Origin: a virus
Taxonomy: Duplodnaviria; Caudoviricetes
Virus record (IMG/VR): IMGVR_UViG_3300042561_002102
Direction: 5' to 3' (one strand)
Length of the DNA stretch: 64,000 bases
Part shown: one piece after another, positions 1 through 37,828 of the stretch
Numbering within the stretch: the first letter of the stretch is position 1
How the letters are laid out: every line of letters begins with the position of its first letter
Notes under the pieces: generated by a model
Told to the model about the DNA's origin: nothing
Database searches by the model: none
What the model saw: the letters and a program-made list of their open reading frames with translations, nothing else
Position numbers and translations under genes: made by a program

Positions 1-77
1 GGTGACTCGACTATTGACCTATCAATTTCTTCTAAAAAGACACCGGGTCTTTTATATTTTCCAATTTGAATTGCCAT
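1..77 (-). CDS. Contractile tail sheath protein, N-terminal fragment (runs off window start; not in ORF track)
   Basis: ATG at 77 on the minus strand translates MAIQIGKYKRPGVFLEEIDRSIVES, matching the typical sheath N-terminal PGV(Y/F)xxE(I)DxS motif; TATATATA at ~100-107 upstream. Confidence 0.75.
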   Translation of the reverse strand, partial: MAIQIGKYKRPGVFLEEIDRSIVES

Positions 78-135
78 ATTTTTTTATTTATTTTGATACT
101 ATATATATTTATTTAAAAGTGATTTTTTACACTTT

Positions 136-990
136 TTAGGATAGTAGAGCGAAATACTCTTTAAAATGTTTCAAACGATCCGCAAGACCGATTGTTCCAC
201 CATTTACTCTTTTCGTTACCGCAGTTACTGTCGCTTCATCACTACCTTTATCACAAATAGCCCAGAGTTTGTTAGAGTCAAAGAAAAAAGCTGCTGATGC
301 TAGAGGATATTTACTAGCTACAAGATCAGGATTGGCAACTGTATCTTCACCTATAAACTTAGCAAAATTAGTATAGTTCGATTTACCGGTGAGTTGGATA
401 TAACCACGACCTCTAAACTTATAACCTTCTTTTGTAGATTCGTCACCATTACCCATACGACCACCGTATACTTTAGATGCTATTTTTTCTGGATTTTTAG
501 CGTAAGAATCAGCAGTGGTGCCAGGGAAATATTTTGGAAATATCTTTTTAAGACCATCAGCTGAGTAATTGAGATTTTCTTGGATGTGCTTGAATCCACC
601 AGATTCATGACCACACTGTGCTAGAAAATGAGCTAAACGAAGTGGTGTAGTAATATTGAATTTCTTAGCAGTGTCAGGTATTTGAGCTATTACGGCATCA
701 GGAATATGACCTTTTAGTTTTTCAAGTTTGAACGTAGAATCTGTTGGAAATACGACATCTTCTTTGATTGGTTTTGCTGCGGCCGGTGCTGTAGGTGCAG
801 TAGTTGCTGCTGGAAACATTTTCGCCCAAGTTCCATCACCAACAATACCATCTGCTGTAAGTCCGTTAGCTGCTTGCCACTCTTTTACTTTCTTTTCAGT
901 TCCAGGACCGAATACTCCATCAGCAGCCAATCCTAATTTTTGTTGAAGTTTTTTTACTTCTTCACCTTTTGAATTTAATTTAATGACCAT
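136..990 (-). CDS. Endolysin: N-terminal peptidoglycan-binding domain + GH19 (chitinase/lysozyme-like) catalytic domain
   Basis: N-terminal GEEVKKLQQKLG..ADGVFGPGTEKKVKEWQ..NGL.ADGIVG (PG_binding_1); LAHFLAQCGHESGGF, ENLNYS and FRGRGYIQLTGKSNY are GH19 phage lysin motifs. Confidence 0.92.
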   Translation of the reverse strand: MVIKLNSKGEEVKKLQQKLGLAADGVFGPGTEKKVKEWQAANGLTADGIVGDGTWAKMFPAATTAPTAPAAAKPIKEDVVFPTDSTFKLEKLKGHIPDAVIAQIPDTAKKFNITTPLRLAHFLAQCGHESGGFKHIQENLNYSADGLKKIFPKYFPGTTADSYAKNPEKIASKVYGGRMGNGDESTKEGYKFRGRGYIQLTGKSNYTNFAKFIGEDTVANPDLVASKYPLASAAFFFDSNKLWAICDKGSDEATVTAVTKRVNGGTIGLADRLKHFKEYFALLS

Positions 991-1036
991 AGTTTTTTAT
1001 TTTTTTTTTTTAGGATATATATAAAATCAAAAATTA

Positions 1037-1438
1037 TTATTTTTTCATGGCGTTTTCAAGTGACTGACGAAGAGCTGAAGAAAACTCAGTTCTCTCGAAA
1101 GGAAGTTTTTCATCTTGAAGTTGAAGTAAGGTTGAGGATACAGAAGTTTTGTTTGATCCTTCACCGATATACTCTTTGCCGTCGATAATAATTTTTGTTT
1201 TAACAATCGTTTTCTTTTGCTTGAACTCGAAAGGTCCGATACGAATACCTTTTGTTGGTGCTTCGATTGAAAGTATTTCTACGTTAATAGCTCTGCCGCT
1301 ATCACATAAGGTATATCTATCGTTAGCAAGTTCCGTAACGATTTGTTTTGCTCCGTAGGTTAGTTTTGTATCTTGGACACCGTTCATGTGAGCGAGTGTT
1401 ATAACACTCGCTATAAAGTAACAAATAATTGAATCCAT
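1037..1438 (-). CDS. Small CsgG-like fold protein (paralog-like to 5767..6459)
   Basis: Segments YGAKQIVTEL, IGEGSNKT and FERTEFSSALRQSLENAM parallel LGVSNRIVENL, SGQGQSTQ and FDQSTVGIATQKALEVAT in the 230-aa CsgG-like protein. Confidence 0.45.
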   Translation of the reverse strand: MDSIICYFIASVITLAHMNGVQDTKLTYGAKQIVTELANDRYTLCDSGRAINVEILSIEAPTKGIRIGPFEFKQKKTIVKTKIIIDGKEYIGEGSNKTSVSSTLLQLQDEKLPFERTEFSSALRQSLENAMKK

Positions 1439-1499
1439 TTTTAATTTCTAGATTTTATCTTGAAATTTTTAATTTCAAGTATAGTTATATATCTAGAAA

Positions 1500-2669
1500 T
1501 TAATCTTGAATTTTAGAAGCAGTTGTTGTAGTTCTGTGTTTACCTTTTGAAACTATCCATATTAGTGAAGTATTCTCAAAGGTTCTAGTATGACTCAGAG
1601 GTCTTGTCAGGTAGTAATTTGGTAAAGTAGAGTTTTGTTCTATATCGAGTTTTTCGGCGTTGGAAAACACTAGATTTTGATTTAATGTTGAATTATTCCA
1701 AAATATATTCCAAGCAGATTTAATATCAAAATAATTTGTTGTAGAGTCTGAGGTTATATCACAAGTGTAAAAATCCCAACTTCTCATCTCTGATGGAAAA
1801 GTTTTCATAAAGAGTAAATAATTCAGTTCTGATTCTATTATTGTGTTAGAGTATTGTGAACTATTTATTGTAGCTCTGAACGTATAGTTTTGTGGATTAG
1901 AAAATGAAGAATTACCCTGCGTATTTGTAAGAATAGTTCCTTGTGGTATCCAAGTTGAACTCTGAACGAAAGGCGTAAAAAGGACGGAGGAGTTAGAGGT
2001 TCCGCTCCAATTTGAACCATTCCTTCCTGGTGTGGTGATTATTTGAGAGTTATCACTATTTGAAATACCCTGTAATGAAGATAGAGAAGCGCAACCAGGG
2101 TGCGAGAGTAGATTTATTCTTACAGTGTTGGTAGTTTCTGATAATACTATTTGAAAATCAGTAAAGAGAGTAGTAGTTGTTCTACAATTATAATATCCAA
2201 TGTGATAACTTACTATAAATCTTCTATTTGGTTGTGATCCGGTAGTTTGGTATCTAACAAAATATCCGGATATCGGAAAGAGATCCATAGCGTTTGCGTG
2301 TATTCCGTTTCTTACTGTATTATTTGGAGAACCACCAACGATATCACCACCCGTATTGGTAAATGAAATCCATCCGTTAGAGCAGATATTTACAGTTGTA
2401 AAATTAGTTCCCCAGTAATTGAAAGTAAAACCAATTGGTAGATTTGATATAGTCTGGTCATCACCGAGAGTAAGTGAAGTTCCTGATGTTGATTCATAAG
2501 CATATGGAACAGATCCTTGTGTGTATCCAGTCTGACCTGGAACAAAATGTTCAACCGTTACTGGAATTCCCTGTGGTATTCTACCATCAATAGTAGAAAT
2601 AGTAATAACTTGGCCAAATACAACACTTGATAAAAAGAGAAAATACGTAACAATTCTAAATATTTTCAT
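1500..2669 (-). CDS. Secreted protein (signal peptide) with beta-sandwich insert and C-terminal dockerin-like module
   Basis: Likely start at ATG 2669 (MKIFRIVTYFLFLSSVVFGQ signal peptide); FTFNYWG..FTTVNICSNGWISF domain typical of Bacteroidota surface proteins; CDITSDSTTNYFD EF-hand-like loop near the C-terminus. Confidence 0.6.
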   Translation of the reverse strand: MKIFRIVTYFLFLSSVVFGQVITISTIDGRIPQGIPVTVEHFVPGQTGYTQGSVPYAYESTSGTSLTLGDDQTISNLPIGFTFNYWGTNFTTVNICSNGWISFTNTGGDIVGGSPNNTVRNGIHANAMDLFPISGYFVRYQTTGSQPNRRFIVSYHIGYYNCRTTTTLFTDFQIVLSETTNTVRINLLSHPGCASLSSLQGISNSDNSQIITTPGRNGSNWSGTSNSSVLFTPFVQSSTWIPQGTILTNTQGNSSFSNPQNYTFRATINSSQYSNTIIESELNYLLFMKTFPSEMRSWDFYTCDITSDSTTNYFDIKSAWNIFWNNSTLNQNLVFSNAEKLDIEQNSTLPNYYLTRPLSHTRTFENTSLIWIVSKGKHRTTTTASKIQD

Positions 2670-2707
2670 TTTAATATATATAAACAAAAAAATAAAAGTC
2701 CAAAAAA

Positions 2708-3133
2708 ATGAAACTTATAAAAAAATTTGAAGAGTTTTCACCAGGTGAAAGTTGGGATAATCTTTCTAAAAAAAGGGGCAGAAAATTAGATCATTTAGTA
2801 GGTCAAACACTTAATTTTAATATCATAACTTATCGCACTGAGGATTTCACCAAAGACGAATTAGAATATAAAAGAAAAACTAACTATGTCGGCACTATAA
2901 AACAAGTTCTAGATTGGGATATTTACGAAGAGCCAAAACTTGTTATTGAGTTACCGGAAAGAACATACAAAATAGGATATAACAAAGCAAAAGATATCTT
3001 CTACATAAGTAGATACTATCTAGCTAATCAAATTTTAGGAAAACGAGATGTTGATAAAAATATTTTAGAAGAGTTTAAACAATTTTTCTATAGTCAACTT
3101 TTCGATCTTGACAAACAATACAGAGATCAATAA
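2708..3133 (+). CDS. Hypothetical protein with capsid-targeting-like N-terminus
   Basis: 141-aa ORF with A-rich leader; starts MKLIKKFEEF. Confidence 0.6.
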   Translation: MKLIKKFEEFSPGESWDNLSKKRGRKLDHLVGQTLNFNIITYRTEDFTKDELEYKRKTNYVGTIKQVLDWDIYEEPKLVIELPERTYKIGYNKAKDIFYISRYYLANQILGKRDVDKNILEEFKQFFYSQLFDLDKQYRDQ

Positions 3134-4281
3134 ACTAAATTCTGTTGATTAGTAAAACCCGGTGTTAGTAAATAAAAATTTGACACACCACCATTTGTAG
3201 GTGTAAAAGTGTAAGTAGATTGAATACCAGGTATCGTATTTCTTAGATCTCCAGTGCTAGAAATAAGAGTATTCCACTGAGTTTGTGTGAAAAGAAGTGT
3301 TCTTTTTTGATAGGATAATCCACCTATTCTTCTTGATGTTAAATAAATATCACCAATAGTTATACTATTATCACCCGTAATCTCGTATTTATGGAAATGG
3401 ATAGAACGTAATGGTATTCTTTGTAAAACAATACTATCAATACCTAAAAAATCAGAACTTGTTAGATTTGACAAAGTTGTCGGTATAGTCACTTCTACAG
3501 ACCATTCATCACCAATTAGTCCTGTTGAAGAAAGAGAATATTGACCAGAACTATTTGTTTGTGAAGTTGATTGTAAAGTCCAAGAGCCAGGTGATGAAGT
3601 TGGAATACCAATTTCCGAAGTTTGTAGAGAGTGAGTTGATTGACCGGGTCTTCTCCAAACAACACTAAGACCATCACCTCCGGCATACTCCTGCATTCTA
3701 GCTCGAAAGGTGTATTGAACACCACTTGTTAAGTTAATATTTCCATAAATTGGACCACTCATTCCGTGACCACCGTAATAACTAACTACAAAATTTCCAC
3801 CAATAAATAGATCAGATCCATCATCTGAGTTGATACCAAAAGAATATTGACCACTTGTTTGTGGTATAAATGTTCCAGTAACCTCAACTGAATAATACTC
3901 TCCGTTATTAGGGACTGTGGCTCCTGCGTTTCTGATTGTTGTGAAAGTCGTAAAATTTAGGCAAGTAGTAGTAGGTAGTGTTCCAGTCCATCTAAGTTGT
4001 GTATTTGAAAAACTAGTATTGAATAGTCGATCGAATTCAGATGTTACTGTAGGATATGCTCCGTATTGTGAGGTATTTCCATTTCCCAAGTGTGTTGAGT
4101 ATATTTTCACGTTCATCGTATTAGATAAAACTATAGTAGGTGTTCTTCTGAACAACTTTGTGATAATATTCTGAACAGGAGCATCGCCTTCAGTTCTAAT
4201 AAAACCTGAATGTGTAAAACTTTGCCCTTGAGTCGATAGAGATAAAAAAATAAGTAGTAGTGGAAATATAACTTTTTTCAT
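3127..4281 (-). CDS. Secreted PA14-domain protein with C-terminal dockerin-like module
   Basis: Signal peptide MKKVIFPLLLIFLSLSTQGQ; PA14 motifs YSFGINSDDGSDLFI and GVQYTFRARMQEYAGGDGLSVVW; YEITGDNSITIGDIYL dockerin-like loop. Confidence 0.75.
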   Translation of the reverse strand: MKKVIFPLLLIFLSLSTQGQSFTHSGFIRTEGDAPVQNIITKLFRRTPTIVLSNTMNVKIYSTHLGNGNTSQYGAYPTVTSEFDRLFNTSFSNTQLRWTGTLPTTTCLNFTTFTTIRNAGATVPNNGEYYSVEVTGTFIPQTSGQYSFGINSDDGSDLFIGGNFVVSYYGGHGMSGPIYGNINLTSGVQYTFRARMQEYAGGDGLSVVWRRPGQSTHSLQTSEIGIPTSSPGSWTLQSTSQTNSSGQYSLSSTGLIGDEWSVEVTIPTTLSNLTSSDFLGIDSIVLQRIPLRSIHFHKYEITGDNSITIGDIYLTSRRIGGLSYQKRTLLFTQTQWNTLISSTGDLRNTIPGIQSTYTFTPTNGGVSNFYLLTPGFTNQQNLVY

Positions 4282-5777
4282 AATAGAATTTTAGTTCCTG
4301 TCAGGACTTGCCAGTTTAAAAATGACTGATTTACTTGATAAACACCAGAAAAACTAATAGTCCATTTAAACTTAGAAGTTACTTTCATATCTGTATTTAT
4401 CATAGGAATGAACAATAAACCACTCTGATACCACTGACCTTGGTAATAATAGGTGTAGGGTGAATAAACACCAAGACCTAAAAAATTAATTCCAAGAGAT
4501 CTACCACCCTTGAAATTAGTAAAACCACCACCCATCAATGCCCAGTTTCTAAAATCTTGATCTGATAATTTTCCGGTCGTGAAGGTAGTGCCTGCCATTA
4601 GTGTTACTTTATTAACTTTCTGAGCGTTGAGTAGTGAGGCTGTTAAAAACCAATCGTTGTTAAAATTAGTCATATAAGATGTCGAAAAAATACCCATATA
4701 GTTTTTCATCTTCAAAGAACCATAACCGGACAAATTAAGAATATTCTGACCTGTCTGGTAGTTGATATTTAGACCTTTGATGAAGGTTTGTTCAGTATTT
4801 ACATGTGTTAGTGATGTGTTGAAACGGAAGTTATCATTACCTGTTTTGGTGATATCAGAATCATTTCTAATAACAACTATATCACCTGTAGCAATGAGAG
4901 CACCAGAAGCAACACGTGATGAACCTCGAGATGATTTACCACCACCAGAAGATCCCCCACCATCACTACCTCCACTTTCACCACCACTAGAAACTTGTTG
5001 GTTTTGTTCTCCCAGTGCGGTTACGCCACCAGATTCGGAATTATTTTCTGTAGAACTACCGTTTTGAGTTGAACCACCTCGCTGATTTGACCCACCACCC
5101 CCTCCTGTGTTGTTACCGGGAGCAGAACCATTTCCGGTTCCACCAGTTCCACTACCTGATCCAGAACCACCACCAGAACCAGATCCACCAGTATTTGAAC
5201 CAGATCCACCAGTATTTGAACCAGATGCACCTGAGTTGTTTCCTGAACCATCACCAGCATTACCACCACTGCCACCTGAGTTGTTTCCCGAACCACCACT
5301 AGATGATCCTGAAGAGTTTGAGTTAGATCCATTACCGTTTTGACCTGTAGTTCCTCCAGTTGTGCCGGATCCGATACCACCGACCGAATTTCCTATCGAG
5401 CTAGCCATCGATACAACAGAAGTAAGAGATGCTACATTGTTAGCAGATACACTTCCCAAAAAATTACTTAAATTCGTAGATGCTCCAGAAGCTGCTTGAC
5501 CTCTTTCTGAAGCACACGGATCAGTTCCTGGTGGGAGAGAACTTATAATTCCCTCTCTCCATCTCTCAAGTTCACCATTTTCCATTTCAGCCTGAGTGAA
5601 AGTTCTGAATCTTCCTAAAAAATTAATTGTTACAGAACCACCTATGGGTATTTGAATAGTTTCATTTCTTTGTAAACAACTATTATAATAAGTATAGGTG
5701 AAACTTTGAGCTTTTACACTCAAAATTCCACCTATACAAAGTGTTAAAATAAACGATAATAAAAATTTACCAACCAT
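4278..5777 (-). CDS. Secreted Gly/Ser/Asn-rich protein with predicted C-terminal outer-membrane beta-barrel
   Basis: Signal peptide, ~150-aa G/S/N/T low-complexity middle, and a C-terminal ~200 aa of alternating hydrophobic/aromatic strands ending WQVLTGTKILL. Confidence 0.6.
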   Translation of the reverse strand: MVGKFLLSFILTLCIGGILSVKAQSFTYTYYNSCLQRNETIQIPIGGSVTINFLGRFRTFTQAEMENGELERWREGIISSLPPGTDPCASERGQAASGASTNLSNFLGSVSANNVASLTSVVSMASSIGNSVGGIGSGTTGGTTGQNGNGSNSNSSGSSSGGSGNNSGGSGGNAGDGSGNNSGASGSNTGGSGSNTGGSGSGGGSGSGSGTGGTGNGSAPGNNTGGGGGSNQRGGSTQNGSSTENNSESGGVTALGEQNQQVSSGGESGGSDGGGSSGGGKSSRGSSRVASGALIATGDIVVIRNDSDITKTGNDNFRFNTSLTHVNTEQTFIKGLNINYQTGQNILNLSGYGSLKMKNYMGIFSTSYMTNFNNDWFLTASLLNAQKVNKVTLMAGTTFTTGKLSDQDFRNWALMGGGFTNFKGGRSLGINFLGLGVYSPYTYYYQGQWYQSGLLFIPMINTDMKVTSKFKWTISFSGVYQVNQSFLNWQVLTGTKILL

Positions 5778-6459
5778 TTTGCTCCAGACGCTTTACTAGG
5801 TTCATTGTAGCAACCTCCAAAGCTTTCTGAGTAGCAATACCAACAGTTGATTGGTCAAATCCCATTTCTGGGTTCTTAAAGTAACCTTCACCGAATTGTG
5901 TAGATTGACCTTGACCAGAAGCAACGATATATTGTGAATTTTCTACATTAACTAAACGAATCTGAATACCCATAATAGTAGTATTGGTTTTCTTCAACTT
6001 ACCTTTATCGTAGTTTTCTGAGTATGATACAGAAAAATCATAAATCTCTGCGTAAACGATATATTTTGGTAAGCGAATACCCTGCATTTTTAGTTTAGTT
6101 TTACCATCGTCAAGACCGTCGATTTTCTTTTCCCAGGCGTCGAGCATTTGATTGACTACGGCGTCTTTTTCTTCGGTAAATTCAAAACGATTGGTATATA
6201 ATAGATTTTCTACAATACGGTTAGATACACCAAGACCTAGTCTTTTTTCCCTAAGTTCAGGAAAAGTTTCCCAGAGTTCTTTGTTGACATTCAATTTTGA
6301 AAGCTGCACGGTTTGTTTTTTACCCGTGTAGGTTGAGATAGATTCTAGTGTTCTATCAGTTTTTTCAAAATCCGCTTGATATTGTGTGGTCGAAATACTA
6401 GATTTACAACCAACTACCATCAAGAAACTTAGTGAGAGAATCGATAACCAGTTTTTCAT
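5767..6459 (-). CDS. CsgG-like (curli assembly/transport family) outer-membrane lipoprotein
   Basis: Lipobox LMVVGC; LGLGVSNRIVENLLYTNRFEFTEE, YIVYAEIYDFS and IQIRLVNVENSQYI follow the CsgG/TolB_N-like family pattern. Confidence 0.72.
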   Translation of the reverse strand: MKNWLSILSLSFLMVVGCKSSISTTQYQADFEKTDRTLESISTYTGKKQTVQLSKLNVNKELWETFPELREKRLGLGVSNRIVENLLYTNRFEFTEEKDAVVNQMLDAWEKKIDGLDDGKTKLKMQGIRLPKYIVYAEIYDFSVSYSENYDKGKLKKTNTTIMGIQIRLVNVENSQYIVASGQGQSTQFGEGYFKNPEMGFDQSTVGIATQKALEVATMNLVKRLEQNGW

Positions 6460-6860
6460 TCTTCTCCCTCCTGTTCTTGTTGTTTTTGTCTGAGTCTTTT
6501 CATTCTCTCGGCTGGTGTTTCTTTCTTTTCCTCAGCAGGCGCAGCGGCTGGCTGAGCCTGTGGTTGAGATGCTGGCGCTACTTCTCTGATAGTTTCTTTC
6601 TCTCTGATGACGGTCGTTCCACCACCTCCAGAGTTACTCGATGCGTTGTTTTGGTTGTTGTTTTCCAAGTTGAGATTTATAACCGGAGCAGCCGCTGGTG
6701 CTACTTGTTCAGTTTTTGTCTCTTCACTGTCGTTTCCACCACCTCCGAAGAGAGTAGTAGAAATCCATACACCACCACCTGTTACCACAGTTGCTAGTGT
6801 GCCTACGATGGTCTTTTTCAATCCACCCCAGGTTCCGTCATTTTCGGTTTCTTCTGCCAT
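6456..6860 (-). CDS. Small single-TM membrane protein
   Basis: Hydrophobic segment IVGTLATVVTGGGVWISTTLF followed by a low-complexity N/A/P/E tail; overlaps the next gene by 4 nt (ATGA-type coupling). Confidence 0.6.
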   Translation of the reverse strand: MAEETENDGTWGGLKKTIVGTLATVVTGGGVWISTTLFGGGGNDSEETKTEQVAPAAAPVINLNLENNNQNNASSNSGGGGTTVIREKETIREVAPASQPQAQPAAAPAEEKKETPAERMKRLRQKQQEQEGEE

Positions 6861-6879
6861 AGTTTTTTTTTGTTTTTTT

Positions 6880-8781
6880 TTATTTTTTAATAAACTTATA
6901 TATTTTTTGTTTTGTTCCTGTAGTTAATCTAACAAAATATAAGCCTGGCTTAAGAGTATTTGTTTCAATTCTTCTAGTGACGGTCTGATCTTGTGCTACA
7001 AACTGTGTTTCAGCGCTGTGTAGTTTTCCAGATAGATCGTAGATTTCTGAAGTTAGATTGTCTGGTGTTGTTTGAAAATAATCTACATACATTTCATCTA
7101 CAACTGGGTTTGGATACACTCTGAAACCATTTACAAGTTGATCTACAAGATCTCTAGCTCTTCTACCGTTTACGATTGTAGCATCGGTTGGTGAAGGAAT
7201 GATATTCAAATCTTGTGCTTTATCACTACCAGCTGCTTTATTGATTATTTGTATAGGTGATTCTTCCCAGTTATTGTTTAGGATTTCAAATTTGAAGTTA
7301 AACATCTGAGTTGGATTAGTGATTAGAGAAGGTGACATTTTTGATTCGTGACCACCCCATAGAATTTCACCTGTTTTCGATGAGATAAATGAGTTCCAAG
7401 CACTTGCCTCTTGTCCTACATTAACACCTACAAATTTAAAGATTTGAGGATTGTATTTTAGACCGATTTGAGAAGCACCTACTTTGTTACCATGTGTAAT
7501 AAGTGTTACATTAACATCAACGGTATTATCACCAGAAATAGTAAGTTTAGGTATTCTAAACTGAACTGAATCTTTGATGTTTTGGTAGATCATACCTTGA
7601 TCAAGAACATAAGATGTTCCAGATGTGCCGGTGTTAAGTCTTTGTATTTGAAAAGAAACGTTATTAAGACCCGTTCCAGTAACGTCACCAAGAACATATC
7701 CAAGATAAGTCATTGAGCTCATACCATTAAGTAAGAGATCTACGAGAGTTGTTCCGATGATCGAGGTTTGAAAAGTGTTAGGGTTTGTTATTATTGCATC
7801 AAATTCTGCCTGAGTATAATATCTAACATTGTATTCGTTAGCAACAACTGGTGACCAAGTCGTTCTTCCGGTAGCTAGACGATTAAATATAAGATACGCG
7901 TCAGAAACCGAAATTGAACCACTTCTGTTTACGTCAGCTTGTTGAAACTCATAAGATTGTGCTGTGTCAGCATAAATACTCATATCAGAAAGACGATAAG
8001 CATCTGTGATATTGATAGCTGAGTTATCAGAAAGTGTATCTAAATTTGATACTAATTTCACGTCATAGAAAGAAGTATCGTAAGGTATTTTGATACCAGC
8101 AATACCAAAGGTGTTGGTAGTGAATCTTTGACCTCTTTGATAAGCTTGTGCTGACTTTAGTTTATAGTCAAAGGCAAATGGCATTCCACTTGCAGGAGTT
8201 CCATCAACATTTAATACCGATACTGGTATTAAAAGAGTATCCATCTGAAATCTACCACCAAGATTGTAAGTTCCTAGTGTGTTATCAATACCACTTGTAG
8301 TTGTAGCGATATTGTTGTAGGTTGGTGTTCCAGTGACTCTAAGTGAGTCTACAGATGAAGGATTGAAACCAACATTATGTGGAAGTAAAACCTCGAATAC
8401 TGCGCCATCTGGCCAATCAAAAACAGCCGAAGATCCGGTGTAGATGGCTGTTGCATTTACCCAACCTGGTTGTGAATAATAAGAACCATATTTGGTGGAT
8501 ATCGATGTTGTTGTAGGCCCCCATTTAACAATTGGTTGTTTGAATGAAGCCTGTGGATAAAAAAATCTAACCTGAAAACCAGCATAGTTTGTAAGGGTTG
8601 GATTGTGATAGTGAAGATAAACTTTAGTAGTATCTTGAAGAATACTACCAAGTGTAAACACAGTGTCGATAATAAAGTGTGGAGAAGATGAGTTTGGTGA
8701 TATCAAAACTTCATTTCTACCATTTTGGCCGAACGCATTGAGCGTTATTAGGGCAAAAAGCCCTACAAGAAACTTTTTCAT
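6880..8781 (-). CDS. T9SS cargo protein with cohesin-like, dockerin-like and second cohesin-like domains plus a type-A C-terminal sorting domain
   Basis: Signal peptide ending AFGQ; YAGFQVRFFYP and VGASQIGLKYNPQIFKF cohesin-like strands; ADVNRSGSISVSDAYLI dockerin loop; CTD VYPNP...IYDLSGK...LKPGLYFVRL...KFIKK. Confidence 0.82.
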   Translation of the reverse strand: MKKFLVGLFALITLNAFGQNGRNEVLISPNSSSPHFIIDTVFTLGSILQDTTKVYLHYHNPTLTNYAGFQVRFFYPQASFKQPIVKWGPTTTSISTKYGSYYSQPGWVNATAIYTGSSAVFDWPDGAVFEVLLPHNVGFNPSSVDSLRVTGTPTYNNIATTTSGIDNTLGTYNLGGRFQMDTLLIPVSVLNVDGTPASGMPFAFDYKLKSAQAYQRGQRFTTNTFGIAGIKIPYDTSFYDVKLVSNLDTLSDNSAINITDAYRLSDMSIYADTAQSYEFQQADVNRSGSISVSDAYLIFNRLATGRTTWSPVVANEYNVRYYTQAEFDAIITNPNTFQTSIIGTTLVDLLLNGMSSMTYLGYVLGDVTGTGLNNVSFQIQRLNTGTSGTSYVLDQGMIYQNIKDSVQFRIPKLTISGDNTVDVNVTLITHGNKVGASQIGLKYNPQIFKFVGVNVGQEASAWNSFISSKTGEILWGGHESKMSPSLITNPTQMFNFKFEILNNNWEESPIQIINKAAGSDKAQDLNIIPSPTDATIVNGRRARDLVDQLVNGFRVYPNPVVDEMYVDYFQTTPDNLTSEIYDLSGKLHSAETQFVAQDQTVTRRIETNTLKPGLYFVRLTTGTKQKIYKFIKK

Positions 8782-8786
8782 GGCTA

Positions 8787-34735: not shown

Positions 34736-37700
34736 ATGGCAACATTCTCAGCGATAGAAAACTATTATGGAATCACCTCGAGTGCTAATGTCAATATATT
34801 TGGCGGTAAGTATATCGATTGCTCTATATGTAATGCCTTCATATCAGATTCTAAACTTCAAAATTGTTCATTAGATAATGATTTTGTTGAAAGAACAATA
34901 GTCATAGATACCAAGTTTACTGAATCGATTGTTAAAGATTCAGATATTGAATCTAGCAATTCCATTATTGTAAAAACAGTTGATATTTGGACTTTTTTAC
35001 CAAGTGCAACATCAAGTGATTTAGATAATGCGACTGGTGTTCTAAAGATTTATGTGAATGATTTTGATATTGAAAAGTTTAATATTTTCGATTCTATTTA
35101 TACAACTAACTTAAATAAGAAGAACCTTATTCAAAATCTTAATTTAGATCAAATTATAGAACTACCCTATGAAACAAGATGGGTGTTCAATAACTTTTTG
35201 AATGATGATATATCGAATGATTTGATATCTGTTACATTCAAAAAATCTGATGAAAATAAATATAAGACTATTGTTATAAATGAATTAGATATTTATAATA
35301 GTTTTACATATTTAAATGATCTATTAGACGAGAACAACAAACCCTACGGTTCAATTGATATTGAAATTGGAAACTATTTAGCTAATAGCTATTTTGGTTT
35401 AAGACACTATATTGATTTTCATATTGACGTATATTCTAGACCAATACTTATTTCGGCTACTGTTTCTTTTGTGCCTTTACTTGATGTAGATACTTCAATA
35501 AGTTTAAATTTAGTAATTAAAAATAGTTCACTTATTGACGTAAGTTTACCAAGTACATATTTTATAGCTAAGCAAAATAACTCAACATTCAAAGTAACAA
35601 ATACTCTTCGTAACTTCATTTTGGATACCTCAACATATTCAATTAGTTATTCAATATCTAGTGATACGAGGGTTAGTTGGGTTCCACGTTTTCATGTAAG
35701 GCTCATACCTGGGGATCCTCTCTGTGAATGTTGTACATCGACTACAACACTACCGGTTTGTGCAACAGATTTATTTACTTACTCTATTATACTTGGATGT
35801 GCTCTAGATGATTTTACATATTCTTTTGTTTTACCAACACCTACACCGACAATTACATCAACGAACACACCTACAACTACTCCAACTGAAACACCTATTA
35901 CTTCTGCTTCGTCTACTCCAACGGAAACACCTACACCAACAGTAACAAAAACACCATCCACATCACCGTCACAAACACCAACGAATACACCTACATTATC
36001 AGTAACACCTACTATAACACAAACTATTTCTGAGACACCAACACTCACACCAACAAATACTCAAACACCAACGAATACACCTACATTATCGGTAACACCT
36101 ACTGTAACACAAACTATTTCTGAGACACCAACAAATACACCTACATTATCGGTAACACCTACTATAACACAAACTATTTCGGAAACACCTACAGAAACTC
36201 CTACCAATACACCAACTGTTACTATAACAAAAACACCAGGACTTTCTGATACACCTACACCAACTATAACTGATACTCCAACTCAAACCCCCACGAATAC
36301 ACCAACACTAACCTCTACTCCAACTCTCACTCCTACAAAGAGTTTAACACCAACCCCTACTCAAACACCAACTCTCACACCTACAAGTAGTTTAACACAG
36401 ACCCCTACAAATACACCAACACTTACACAAACACCAACTCTCACACCTACAAGTAGTTTAACACAGACCCCTACAAATACACCAACACTTACACAAACAC
36501 CAACTACCACCTCATCATTGACCCCGACACCAACTGTTACTGAAACTCCAACCGAAACACCAACCGAAACACCAACACCTACACCAACACCGATAGATGA
36601 ACAGCAACAATCAGTCTATTTTTACGGGAATCAGGGATACGGTTCTGGAGAAGGTTCTTATCTATCGTTCTCAAACACAACATTTATGAGCTTAACTGGA
36701 TCTTTAATGGACGGAACACCAACCGTAGTTCCGAAATTTACATTATCTATGTGGATCGAACCAGATTGGACACCGGGGTTAGGATATCCAGCCTATCTAT
36801 TCGAATTGAGAACACAGGAATATCCGATAGCTTATGGGATCACAGGAAGTCAAATGAGAATTTATTATGATGCAGAGACCGGGTATAATGCAGTGCAGAT
36901 GAGCTTAGAGTATTTTATAGATGGAAAGTCTGCATCTACATATATGAATTGGATACTTTCTACTGGTAGTAACGCCGATATAACAGGTATCTACGCTACT
37001 GGCCAATCATCTTGGAATTCATCGACTAGTCCTACATTTTCTATGCTCACTTTTGTTATGGATGGTGATCAGACTGGAATTACAAATCAGTTCAGAATGT
37101 TCTGGAATGGATTTACTCTTTCTGGAACGGGTAGTGCGACACCGGGGTTTGTTGCCGAAGAATCTGTGTATAGTTTTTACTCATCCAATAGATCAAGTTA
37201 CATACCGGCAACCATGAGTGGCGTATTAGGTGCTTACTTTTGGCCAAGAGCTTTCTGGGCTGATAACCTATTCTTCTACTGGAATTCTCTTTCTCAACAG
37301 CAGATTAGAGACCAATTGTGGAACACTTCTCAACCACTTTGTAACTATTCAAATCTATTCACTGGATCCTTATATTGGAACTTTAATTCCAACATGAATC
37401 CATACAGATCGGTTGGTAACCAACTAACTCTATCACCGGTGGGTGTAATACTTGATGCACCTACAATCTCAACAACTCATTCGGTTTCGTGTGTTACTCA
37501 GCTGTTGGATAATGTTTGGACTAATGTTTATGATAATTACTTTGGATGTGCTAACTATGTCAGAGGTGTCTATTGTGATGGATCTGGAGATCAATCATGT
37601 ATGTCGTCACCCGATACTTACTATACAGACTATAACATTGGTTCAGAAGATAGGTTCTATCTAGGAATGACTTTCTATTCTGATGCTGCACTTTCTACAC

Positions 37701-37828
37701 CTGTATCACTAGGGGGCACTTGGTATTTTGCCTTCACTCTTAGTGTTGCTCCTGGTAGTGGAACTCTTTATGAAATGAATAATTACAATCTTTCTGCCAC
37801 ATATAGTTTGGGCGAAAGTTGTGTATAG
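34736..37828 (+). CDS. Large Thr/Pro-rich modular protein with LamG/concanavalin-like C-terminal region
   Basis: ~250-aa TP linker; FTLSMWIEP and [10 protein letters not shown]...FRMFWNG LamG-like strands; C-terminal [10 protein letters not shown] domain. Confidence 0.6.
35981..36190 (+). repeat. Three near-identical 60-nt coding repeats ([20 protein letters not shown])
   Basis: Copies at 35981-36040, 36071-36130 and 36131-36190. Confidence 0.85.
36362..36505 (+). repeat. 66-nt tandem repeat ([22 protein letters not shown] x2 plus partial)
   Basis: Identical units at 36362-36427 and 36428-36493. Confidence 0.85.

Follow-up and report, generated by a model that had tools for sequence, protein, structure and literature searches.

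A phage operon for exported proteins

The 64,000-nucleotide (nt) stretch of DNA analysed here (the window, in whose positions all coordinates are given unless another locus is named) is part of an 82-kb (82.5-kb) IMG/VR virus record, IMGVR_UViG_3300042561_002102. It carries an operon of exported proteins that includes a putative scaffoldin (P0003) with two cohesin folds, a dockerin and a type IX secretion system (T9SS) C-terminal domain (CTD). The record encodes a terminase, a DNA polymerase, helicases, a ribonucleotide reductase (RNR) and, adjacent to the operon, an endolysin; the window belongs to a phage, and the cluster is phage-encoded. The host group is Bacteroidota and the phages are large and aquatic (lake water), with the window sequence found in many lake-water metagenomes.

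All genes of the operon are co-oriented on the minus strand. P0003 (633 amino acids (aa); 6880–8781) lies upstream and is separated by 19 nt from the gene for a small membrane protein, P0006. The genes for a lipoprotein (P0005), an outer-membrane barrel protein (P0004) and P0002 (384 aa; 3127–4281) follow, with overlaps of 4–11 nt from P0006 through P0002 (the P0006 stop and the P0005 start share 4 nt), and the operon continues through P0001 (1500–2669) to a last gene, W133. P0002 and P0001, referred to here as cargo, each consist of a signal peptide, a head and a C-terminal module that is also present in P0003. The start of P0001 is most likely the ATG at 2669, giving 389 aa; an earlier reading of this DNA (the original prediction) had counted 395 aa. 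Sec-type signal peptides stand at the N termini of P0003, P0004, P0002 and P0001, as judged from the sequence, and every element that the original prediction had described was found in its place on the minus strand. A PHROGs search gave no match for the operon proteins, and megablast of the region against GenBank phages gave none either.

The three proteins share a module with a dockerin core

A module of about 110–150 aa with a dockerin core is common to P0003, P0002 and P0001. Pairwise BLASTP among the three window proteins does not detect it significantly (E 0.079, above 0.3 and 0.84), so the alignment of the original prediction could, on its own, have been chance, and the homology becomes visible only through relatives and profiles. 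We gathered C termini from relatives (20 P0002-type and 22 P0001-type) and compared them by hhalign, which scored the two cargo types against each other at 97.3% (E 2.4e-11), the P0002-type against residues 180–350 of P0003 at 93.2% (E 2.9e-7) and the P0001-type against P0003 at 94.0% (E 1.4e-7). A second hhalign run, of alignment A2 against alignment A3, gave 96.8% (E 3.1e-10). The blocks aligned originally are those recovered by these profile methods (hhalign 93–97%).

A hidden Markov model (HMM) built from cargo modules only has exactly three matches in the 82-kb record, namely P0001, P0002 and P0003 at about aa 222–342 (E 9e-8). Against 2121 open reading frames (ORFs) of related loci, the same HMM finds 39 of scaffoldin size (E 5e-8 to 6e-4) and also 61 shorter, cargo-sized ones (<600 aa); searched against 1.84 billion proteins, the cargo-only profile finds proteins of 627–641 aa that carry both Cohesin and Por_Secre_tail (E 3e-14 to 2e-7). 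Chimeric proteins at other loci match P0002 (E 1e-67) and P0001 (E 4e-23) across the module. The T(T/N)N..G strand that had been noted ahead of the module recurs as well, its T and G being invariant in 31 modules. Taken together, these profile comparisons indicate that the shared module is real.

The core of the module resembles dockerins at the level of both profile and predicted structure. Positions 36–92 of the cargo profile find proteins made of 6–8 true Dockerin_1 repeats (P0099, P0135 and P0159) at E-values of 4e-13 to 1e-8, which sum over several repeats. The Pfam model Dockerin_1 (PF00404) gives P0003 19.3 bits (aa 252–302), below the cut-off of 22.9, and matches weakly in 10 of 33 scaffoldin relatives (best E 4e-4) and 5 of 31 cargo modules; it matches neither P0001 nor P0002. 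The module of P0002 (nt 3130–3579, minus strand; dockerin core at aa 269–329, nt 3295–3477) was modelled with AF2 at pLDDT 88 and pTM 0.82. When this model was compared exhaustively by VIA with 48,161 PDB chains, the 12 best matches were all dockerins (Z 4.2–2.4, model residues 35–95), 11 of them at a root-mean-square deviation (rmsd) of 2.5–4.2 Å over 47–59 residues and one, the double-dockerin 8x39_B, at 5.4 Å over 86. The model thereby shows the three-helix F-hand fold, at low Z. Foldseek also places dockerins in the top three (TM 0.64–0.70 by target), its PDB search returning nothing at E<=0.001 for the cargo module. PDB sequence searches with the module profiles gave non-significant matches only, the best of which were dockerin or X-dockerin chains (E 0.1–0.75; for profile A3, the dockerin 2ccl_B at E 0.75). 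In P0001, the module is the last 150 aa (nt 1503–1952, minus strand), as placed by hhalign.

The original prediction had called the module dockerin-like; it extends beyond a dockerin on both sides. The core is preceded by a beta hairpin (T-T/N-N-x-x-G ... Y-x-V-x-V) and followed by a strand–helix–strand extension (FTQxEW), the equivalents in P0003 being aa 215–246 and 319–363. Of the two duplicated segments with 12-residue Ca2+ loops that characterize a dockerin, P0003 has both loops (TLSDNSAINITD, partly degenerate, and DVNRSGSISVSD, canonical) and the cargo modules do not have the pair. The second loops of relatives are canonical, for example DLNNDGKLTVGD, DLSNDGIVTIED and DVNGDGKITISD. As far as profiles and models can place them, the window copies are divergent dockerin-like modules homologous to dockerins.

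P0003 combines two cohesin folds with a type A CTD

The AF2 model of P0003 (pLDDT 73) contains five parts that were matched by VIA-align, and the protein lies within a tight family of relatives of ~633 aa. From the N terminus, it comprises the signal peptide, a first cohesin fold (Coh1), a beta-sandwich, the dockerin, an alpha/beta extension, a linker, a second cohesin fold (Coh2) and the CTD. Coh1 (aa 30–180, nt 8242–8694, minus strand) aligns with the ScaB cohesin 5nrm_A at Z 13.4 and 2.8 Å over 133 residues, and Coh2 (aa 399–540, nt 7162–7587, minus strand) with 6kgd_A at Z 14.2 and 2.7 Å over 134 residues; both have the nine-stranded jelly-roll of cohesins in the AF2 model, a judgement made on predicted models with pLDDT about 60–85. 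With solved cohesins matched at these scores to both domains, the description of two cohesin-like domains in the 633-aa protein was right. Pfam sees Coh2 only (Cohesin, PF00963, aa 408–534), which exceeds the cut-off of 24.1 with 28.4 bits and is matched in 33 of 33 relatives. Coh1 has no sequence match to Pfam Cohesin, and hhalign of Coh1 against Coh2 gives a probability of only 5.7%, that is, no detectable sequence similarity despite the common fold.

The region between the cohesin folds contains the P0003 copy of the shared module. A five-stranded beta-sandwich in the AF2 model (aa 183–246, nt 8044–8235, minus strand) occupies the site of the cellulosomal X module; its last strands (TTN..G and Y.V.V) are part of the shared module, and cargo copies match SdrD_B and CarboxypepD_reg weakly. 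The dockerin core with its two Ca2+ loops (aa 250–305, nt 7867–8034, minus strand; helices 258–268, 277–282 and 292–303), to which the sub-threshold Dockerin_1 match belongs, is followed by the alpha/beta extension (aa 306–365, nt 7687–7866, minus strand). The YTQAEF helix of this extension, which is again within the shared module, aligns with the FTQTQW and FSNAEK segments of the cargo. Over a longer span, 3kcp_A (CipA CohI9-X-DocII) was aligned over residues 33–308 of the P0003 model.

The T9SS type A CTD (aa 551–633, nt 6883–7131, minus strand) scores 43.5 bits with PF18962 and 48.7 bits with TIGR04183, passing the cut-off. Its profile match at aa 555–631 (Pfam/NCBIfam) lies behind a Sec signal peptide, as in type A proteins, and its fold matches the mirolase CTD 8qb1_A at VIA Z 10.7. 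That only the 633-aa protein carries such a tag, as originally claimed, is borne out across the 82-kb record, in which this CTD is the only one and the Pfam cohesin gene is likewise single. At E<=0.1, none of the CTD models (type A, B or C) matches P0001 or P0002 as whole proteins, and at E<=1 none matches any of 31 cargo modules.

Lectin-type heads are shuffled on a constant module

P0002 carries a PA14 head (PF07691) at aa 126–218, which scores 42.9 bits and passes the cut-off of 24, followed by the shared module at aa 235–384. The N-terminal head of P0001 is beta-rich, with a weak NIDO-like lead that comes from a sub-threshold match in a relative (P0054) and an Atlas lead. Most full-length members of the cargo family start with a signal peptide, and the heads among 33 cargo representatives comprise PA14 (7), C-type lectin (5), LamG (3), GEVED (2), legume lectin (1) and Mtd_N (1). 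The original prediction had named PA14 correctly and had taken the variable domains for insertions; they are N-terminal heads, and the module is kept while the heads shuffle. A 571-aa protein encoded at L005:14219–15934, L008:13183–14898, L009:13216–14931 and L026:10926–12641 fuses the N-terminal head of P0001 to the PA14 head and module of P0002. Because these heads are fused in relatives and lie in separate genes in the window, they provide direct evidence of head shuffling.

Some further features of the cargo genes were noted in passing. C-type lectin folds and Mtd_N (the tropism determinant of Bordetella phage BPP-1) are usual targets of diversity-generating retroelements, and no reverse transcriptase was found in the 82-kb record. 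The 457-nt gap between the two cargo genes contains a 141-aa ORF on the plus strand (2708–3133). In a 93%-identical relative (L007, 15234–16163), the corresponding gap holds an additional ORF of 309 aa that ends in a TnpB-like zinc ribbon (IS200/IS605 type), and the gaps of the window and this relative share 220 nt at 88% identity. In one clade (L012–L016, about 13200–14325), the cargo ORF, counted from the first ATG, has just 211 aa and the upstream gap is ~500 nt longer; these ORFs could be frameshifted or N-terminally truncated PA14 cargo.

An outer-membrane block with a probable CsgG-superfamily lipoprotein

The operon is made of two blocks, the scaffoldin-plus-cargo set and an outer-membrane set. 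P0006 (134 aa; 6456–6860, minus strand), which is present in all loci, has, as read from its sequence, a single membrane helix at the N terminus and a charged tail of low complexity. P0005 (230 aa; 5767–6459, minus strand), a lipoprotein with the lipobox VVGC, is the best-conserved gene of the operon. Its Atlas features reach 0.95 to CsgG/HfaB/LpoB clusters, and a homolog in a KSB1 metagenome-assembled genome (MAG), 42% identical, passes the Pfam model CsgG (PF03783; 25.7 bits, cut-off 20.8). The window copy and the viral members of alignment A5 have no direct Pfam or PDB sequence match. Through transitive homology, P0005 is probably a lipoprotein of the CsgG/LpoB superfamily that is only distantly CsgG-like. 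P0004 (499 aa; 4278–5777, minus strand) consists of a signal peptide, a small N-terminal domain, a Gly/Ser/Asn-rich linker of ~200 aa and a C-terminal outer-membrane beta-barrel (aa ~290–499), for which the Atlas model of aa 290–499 reaches TM 0.72–0.80 with the barrels of DUF481, KdgM porin and autotransporters. The last gene, W133 (P0052; 1037–1438, minus strand), encodes a conserved 133-aa protein found in 52 loci.

Searching genome contigs with P0005 identified a single bacterial locus, in the KSB1 MAG (METF01000126.1, 516–4550). This locus encodes a small membrane protein, the CsgG-family lipoprotein and a barrel protein with an acidic linker, together with a second CsgG-like lipoprotein and further small barrels; genes for cohesins or dockerins are absent from it. 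The outer-membrane half of the operon may thus have come from a cell, and P0005 with the barrel could serve as an alternative route or anchor for the CTD-less proteins. Separately, some relatives have an extra gene of ~272 aa between the P0004 homolog and the cargo (L037:12649–13467, L041:13458–14282, L043:13605–14417, L055:13780–14604 and others), the product of which ends in ...NYDF like an outer-membrane barrel.

The operon is conserved and its scaffoldin is split in a cultured phage

At least 54 IMG/VR viral loci contain the operon, the genes downstream of the scaffoldin being the same. All 36 loci that reach far enough have one or two dockerin cargo genes, and wherever a complete locus was examined, the module was accompanied by two cohesin folds. 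Two distant cargo proteins are also encoded in operons with a scaffoldin; of these scaffoldins, the one compared with P0003 is only 28% identical to it. More broadly, profile A2 has about 300 representative matches in public data, generic repeat proteins among them.

A scaffoldin was found by tblastn in the 160-kb Flavobacterium phage vB_FspM_immuto, which infects Flavobacterium sp. LMO8 and whose operon spans 6930–12812 of NC_055915.1 according to annotation, HMM and BLAST matches. Here the scaffoldin is divided between two genes. The product of gp014 contains Coh1 and the dockerin module behind its own signal peptide and has no CTD; that of gp015 contains a signal peptide, Coh2 and the CTD. 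The cargo protein gp013 joins a C-type lectin to the module (E 2e-27), its gene lying upstream, rather than downstream, of the scaffoldin genes, and gp016–gp019 are homologs of P0006, P0005, P0004 and W133. Proteins of ~365 aa that end at the same linker as gp014 are also encoded elsewhere (P0137 and P0164). The existence of fused and split forms of one protein argues that the two halves work together, and most simply they would be held together by the binding of dockerin to cohesin. The split in immuto is the best indirect support for docking and speaks, if modestly, for carriage in trans by the half with the CTD.

Genomic surroundings

Directly downstream of the operon, at a distance of 46 nt, lies the endolysin gene (136–990, minus strand; phrog_181, E 3e-69). 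On the other side, 5 nt upstream of P0003, is W116 (P0053; 8787–9137, minus strand), recognized by sequence as a small two-helix membrane protein and kept upstream in close relatives; that it is a holin is a guess. Further upstream, an 861-aa protein (9763–12348, minus strand) matches phrog_15511 (unknown function), as does a 1030-aa protein at 34736–37828 on the plus strand; relatives of such proteins are 900–1040 aa long and have variable parts. CheckV puts the completeness of the 82.5-kb record at 14%, implying a very large genome, an estimate that may be off because related contigs reach 186 kb and the cultured relative 160 kb.

When metatranscriptome contigs from 4 freshwater or aquatic libraries (3 studies) were compared with window positions 1–12400, short pieces were found, some without mismatch, on the endolysin, W133, P0005/P0006, P0003 and W116 genes. 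Within the same interval, the cargo genes and positions 9523–12400 had no metatranscriptome contig cover. Because contigs of RNA libraries cannot prove transcription, this cover is at most a weak hint.

A proposed display system and its alternatives

Judged from profiles and predicted folds, docking of dockerins on cohesins is the best-supported reading of the operon. We propose a phage display system in which the scaffoldin leaves by the host T9SS and the lectin–dockerin proteins dock on its cohesins, and we give this proposal about an even chance of being correct. In such a system, the exported proteins of the operon would enter the infected cell's envelope. Host Sec would take P0003 to the periplasm, and the type A CTD would direct it to the host T9SS, which would export it to the cell surface or attach it there. 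P0002 and P0001, with their lectin-type heads, would dock on the P0003 cohesins through the dockerin module in a Ca2+-dependent manner, and the infected cell, its debris or its vesicles would then display exchangeable sugar-binding heads. The dockerin of the scaffoldin itself may link scaffoldins to each other or to Coh2. Candidate purposes are host-cell aggregation or capture and the masking of receptor glycans; for the CTD-less proteins, the outer membrane might be crossed by hitch-hiking on the scaffoldin, by way of the CsgG-family lipoprotein and the barrel, or through release at lysis. The predicted binding of dockerin to cohesin, the surface location of the cargo and the purpose of the display are what we infer. 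With the mini-cellulosome logic of the original prediction, the anatomy, the conservation and the head shuffling agree; its other element, piggy-back export through the T9SS, has no direct support.

Several points count against docking. Contact between cohesin and dockerin was not reliably predicted: a complex prediction of Coh1, Coh2 and the P0002 module reached a score of 0.02 where the mark is 0.32, which speaks neither for nor against binding. No window copy of the module reaches the Dockerin_1 cut-off, and the structural Z of the dockerin core is low (4.2 or less), as the domain is small (about 55 residues). The cargo dockerins have lost the first Ca2+ loop through a 4-residue deletion, and the second loop is degenerate in the window cargo copies (EITGDNSITIGD and DITSDSTTNYFD). 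For many cohesin and dockerin modules outside cellulosomes no partner is known, and in some Bacteroidota type A CTD proteins are released, not anchored. The roles of the other envelope proteins (the CsgG-family lipoprotein, the barrel, the membrane protein and W133) are left unexplained by the model. Finally, the operon adjoins lysis genes, which allows for a role related to lysis.

How the cargo might reach the surface is where the alternatives first diverge. The record has one CTD for three dockerin proteins, and the T9SS moves folded and very large proteins (PMC9251779), both of which would suit a route in which CTD-less dockerin proteins bind the scaffoldin cohesins in the periplasm and cross the T9SS as a folded complex. 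The Coh1–dockerin half of the immuto scaffoldin is moreover no longer covalently linked to the CTD-bearing half; if the fused and split scaffoldins are equivalent, carriage in trans is the simplest explanation. We nevertheless consider this route unlikely, given that we found no T9SS co-transport of an untagged partner in the published literature, that the operon's own outer-membrane components could do the export instead and that nothing here indicates the departure of cargo from the periplasm. The claim that the T9SS exports untagged hitch-hikers, meaning the lectin cargo and, in split versions, a whole Coh1–dockerin adaptor such as gp014, is doubtful to the same degree. If hitch-hiking were true, the phages would gain a plug-and-play means of decorating the host surface.

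Those outer-membrane components are central to a second possibility, which we hold to be slightly less likely still: only the scaffoldin would use the T9SS, the lectin–dockerin proteins would leave via P0005 and P0004 with P0006 and W133 as helpers, and docking would take place outside the cell only. The CsgG channels that are known transport amyloid subunits, which are small and unfolded, rather than lectins of 40 kDa, and many members of the superfamily (LpoB, for example) do not form channels. Transitive homology places P0005 in the CsgG family, and P0005 itself reaches no CsgG model. The barrel and long disordered linker of P0004 resemble an autotransporter or a curli-type partner, and the outer-membrane genes are translationally coupled with the cargo gene. 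The trio of membrane protein, CsgG-family protein and barrel that stands alone in the bacterial MAG cuts both ways, as it forms a unit of its own and, in KSB1, works without dockerin proteins. A precedent in phages exists in the CsgG/CsgF clusters carried by pelagimyophages (PMC7029224).

The remaining two alternatives dispense with docking as the main purpose. The shared module might be no ligand of cohesins but a common address or structural module for the P0004/P0005 complex, for Ca2+ or for a glycan, with the cohesins put to some other use. It is larger than a dockerin and forms, with its flanking strands, one compact unit (pTM 0.82), the cargo copies lack the first Ca2+ loop, and the scaffoldin itself carries the module, which a pure socket protein would not need. 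Adaptor scaffoldins with both cohesins and a dockerin are, however, standard in cellulosomes (3kcp and 4fl4 align over Coh-X-Doc), the PDB matches to the core of the module are all dockerins and its profile finds true Dockerin_1 repeats, and two cohesin folds lie alongside in every complete locus examined; we therefore judge this reading improbable. More improbable again is that the operon is an accessory to lysis which disrupts or remodels the outer membrane late in infection, with P0006 and P0005 acting like spanins and the lectin and cohesin parts being secondary. The endolysin gene 46 nt downstream and the small two-helix membrane protein 5 nt upstream suggest such a role, and endolysin-type genes flank the operon in most relatives. 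In immuto, however, the operon is not beside lysis genes, and the diversity of the heads points to ligand recognition; spanins are small and have no lectin, cohesin or T9SS parts.

Comparison with known systems

If docking of the lectin–dockerin proteins on P0003 is real, the operon would encode a cellulosome-style plug-and-socket system on a Gram-negative surface, anchored through the T9SS and encoded by a virus. From one related phage to another, the exchangeable lectin heads differ in much the way that receptor-binding proteins do, and docking would give the phages a way to alter what the infected cell sticks to. Its possible effects include host-cell capture, aggregation, receptor masking against other phages and trapping on debris. 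For the T9SS, the system would pose the question of whether untagged partners can be carried. The operon is widespread, in at least 54 IMG/VR contigs and in lake-water metagenomes from many runs, and its presence in a cultured pair, phage immuto with Flavobacterium sp. LMO8, makes the question open to direct testing. Our searches of the literature on cohesin or dockerin with T9SS, on T9SS piggy-back export and on phage cohesin or dockerin found no description of such a system.

The closest parallel in layout is with cellulosomal scaffoldins such as Clostridium thermocellum CipA CohI9-X-DocII together with anchoring scaffoldins (3kcp, 4fl4), which share with P0003 the cohesin folds and a beta-sandwich before the dockerin. 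As in adaptor scaffoldins of cellulosomes, the scaffoldin itself bears a dockerin, and dockerin-tagged partners are encoded nearby. Unlike cellulosomes, the system described here has a Gram-negative host, a T9SS CTD anchor in place of S-layer homology (SLH) domains or sortase, and a phage origin; its cargo consists of lectins instead of enzymes, each cargo dockerin has additional structure at its flanks and only one Ca2+ loop, which is often degenerate, and the binding is predicted. No enzyme or carbohydrate-binding module (CBM) was found among the cargo heads, which places the system outside the definition of a cellulosome. By analogy, it may work like a cellulosome, yet it is not one.

Among phages, the Bacteroidota phage 'Cryophage' has variable type A CTD proteins, one of them with PA14 (Bellas et al. 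2020, PMC7468147). Its cargo proteins are each equipped with a CTD, and the description of this phage includes neither cohesin nor dockerin nor CsgG-like genes (PMC7468147), whereas here the scaffoldin alone is tagged. Pelagimyophages (PMC7029224) and the methylophage Melnitz (PMC9004378) carry curli-type (type VIII secretion) gene clusters and resemble the present case in having a CsgG-family gene within a conserved cluster of exported proteins of unknown role; cell aggregation ('sibling capture') has been proposed for the pelagimyophage CsgG/CsgF clusters (PMC7029224). In contrast to the operon studied here, those clusters belong to phages of SAR11 and OM43 and include CsgF, and they lack cohesin, dockerin, lectins and a T9SS tag. 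Outside cellulose degradation, non-cellulosomal modules with cohesin and dockerin folds are distributed across bacteria and archaea, examples being those of Archaeoglobus fulgidus (cohesin 2xdh) and of Clostridium perfringens NagH/NagJ (2ozn, 2jh2), all three of which appear among our structural matches. Unlike those cellular modules, the pair described here is part of a conserved phage operon, together with lectin heads and a T9SS anchor.

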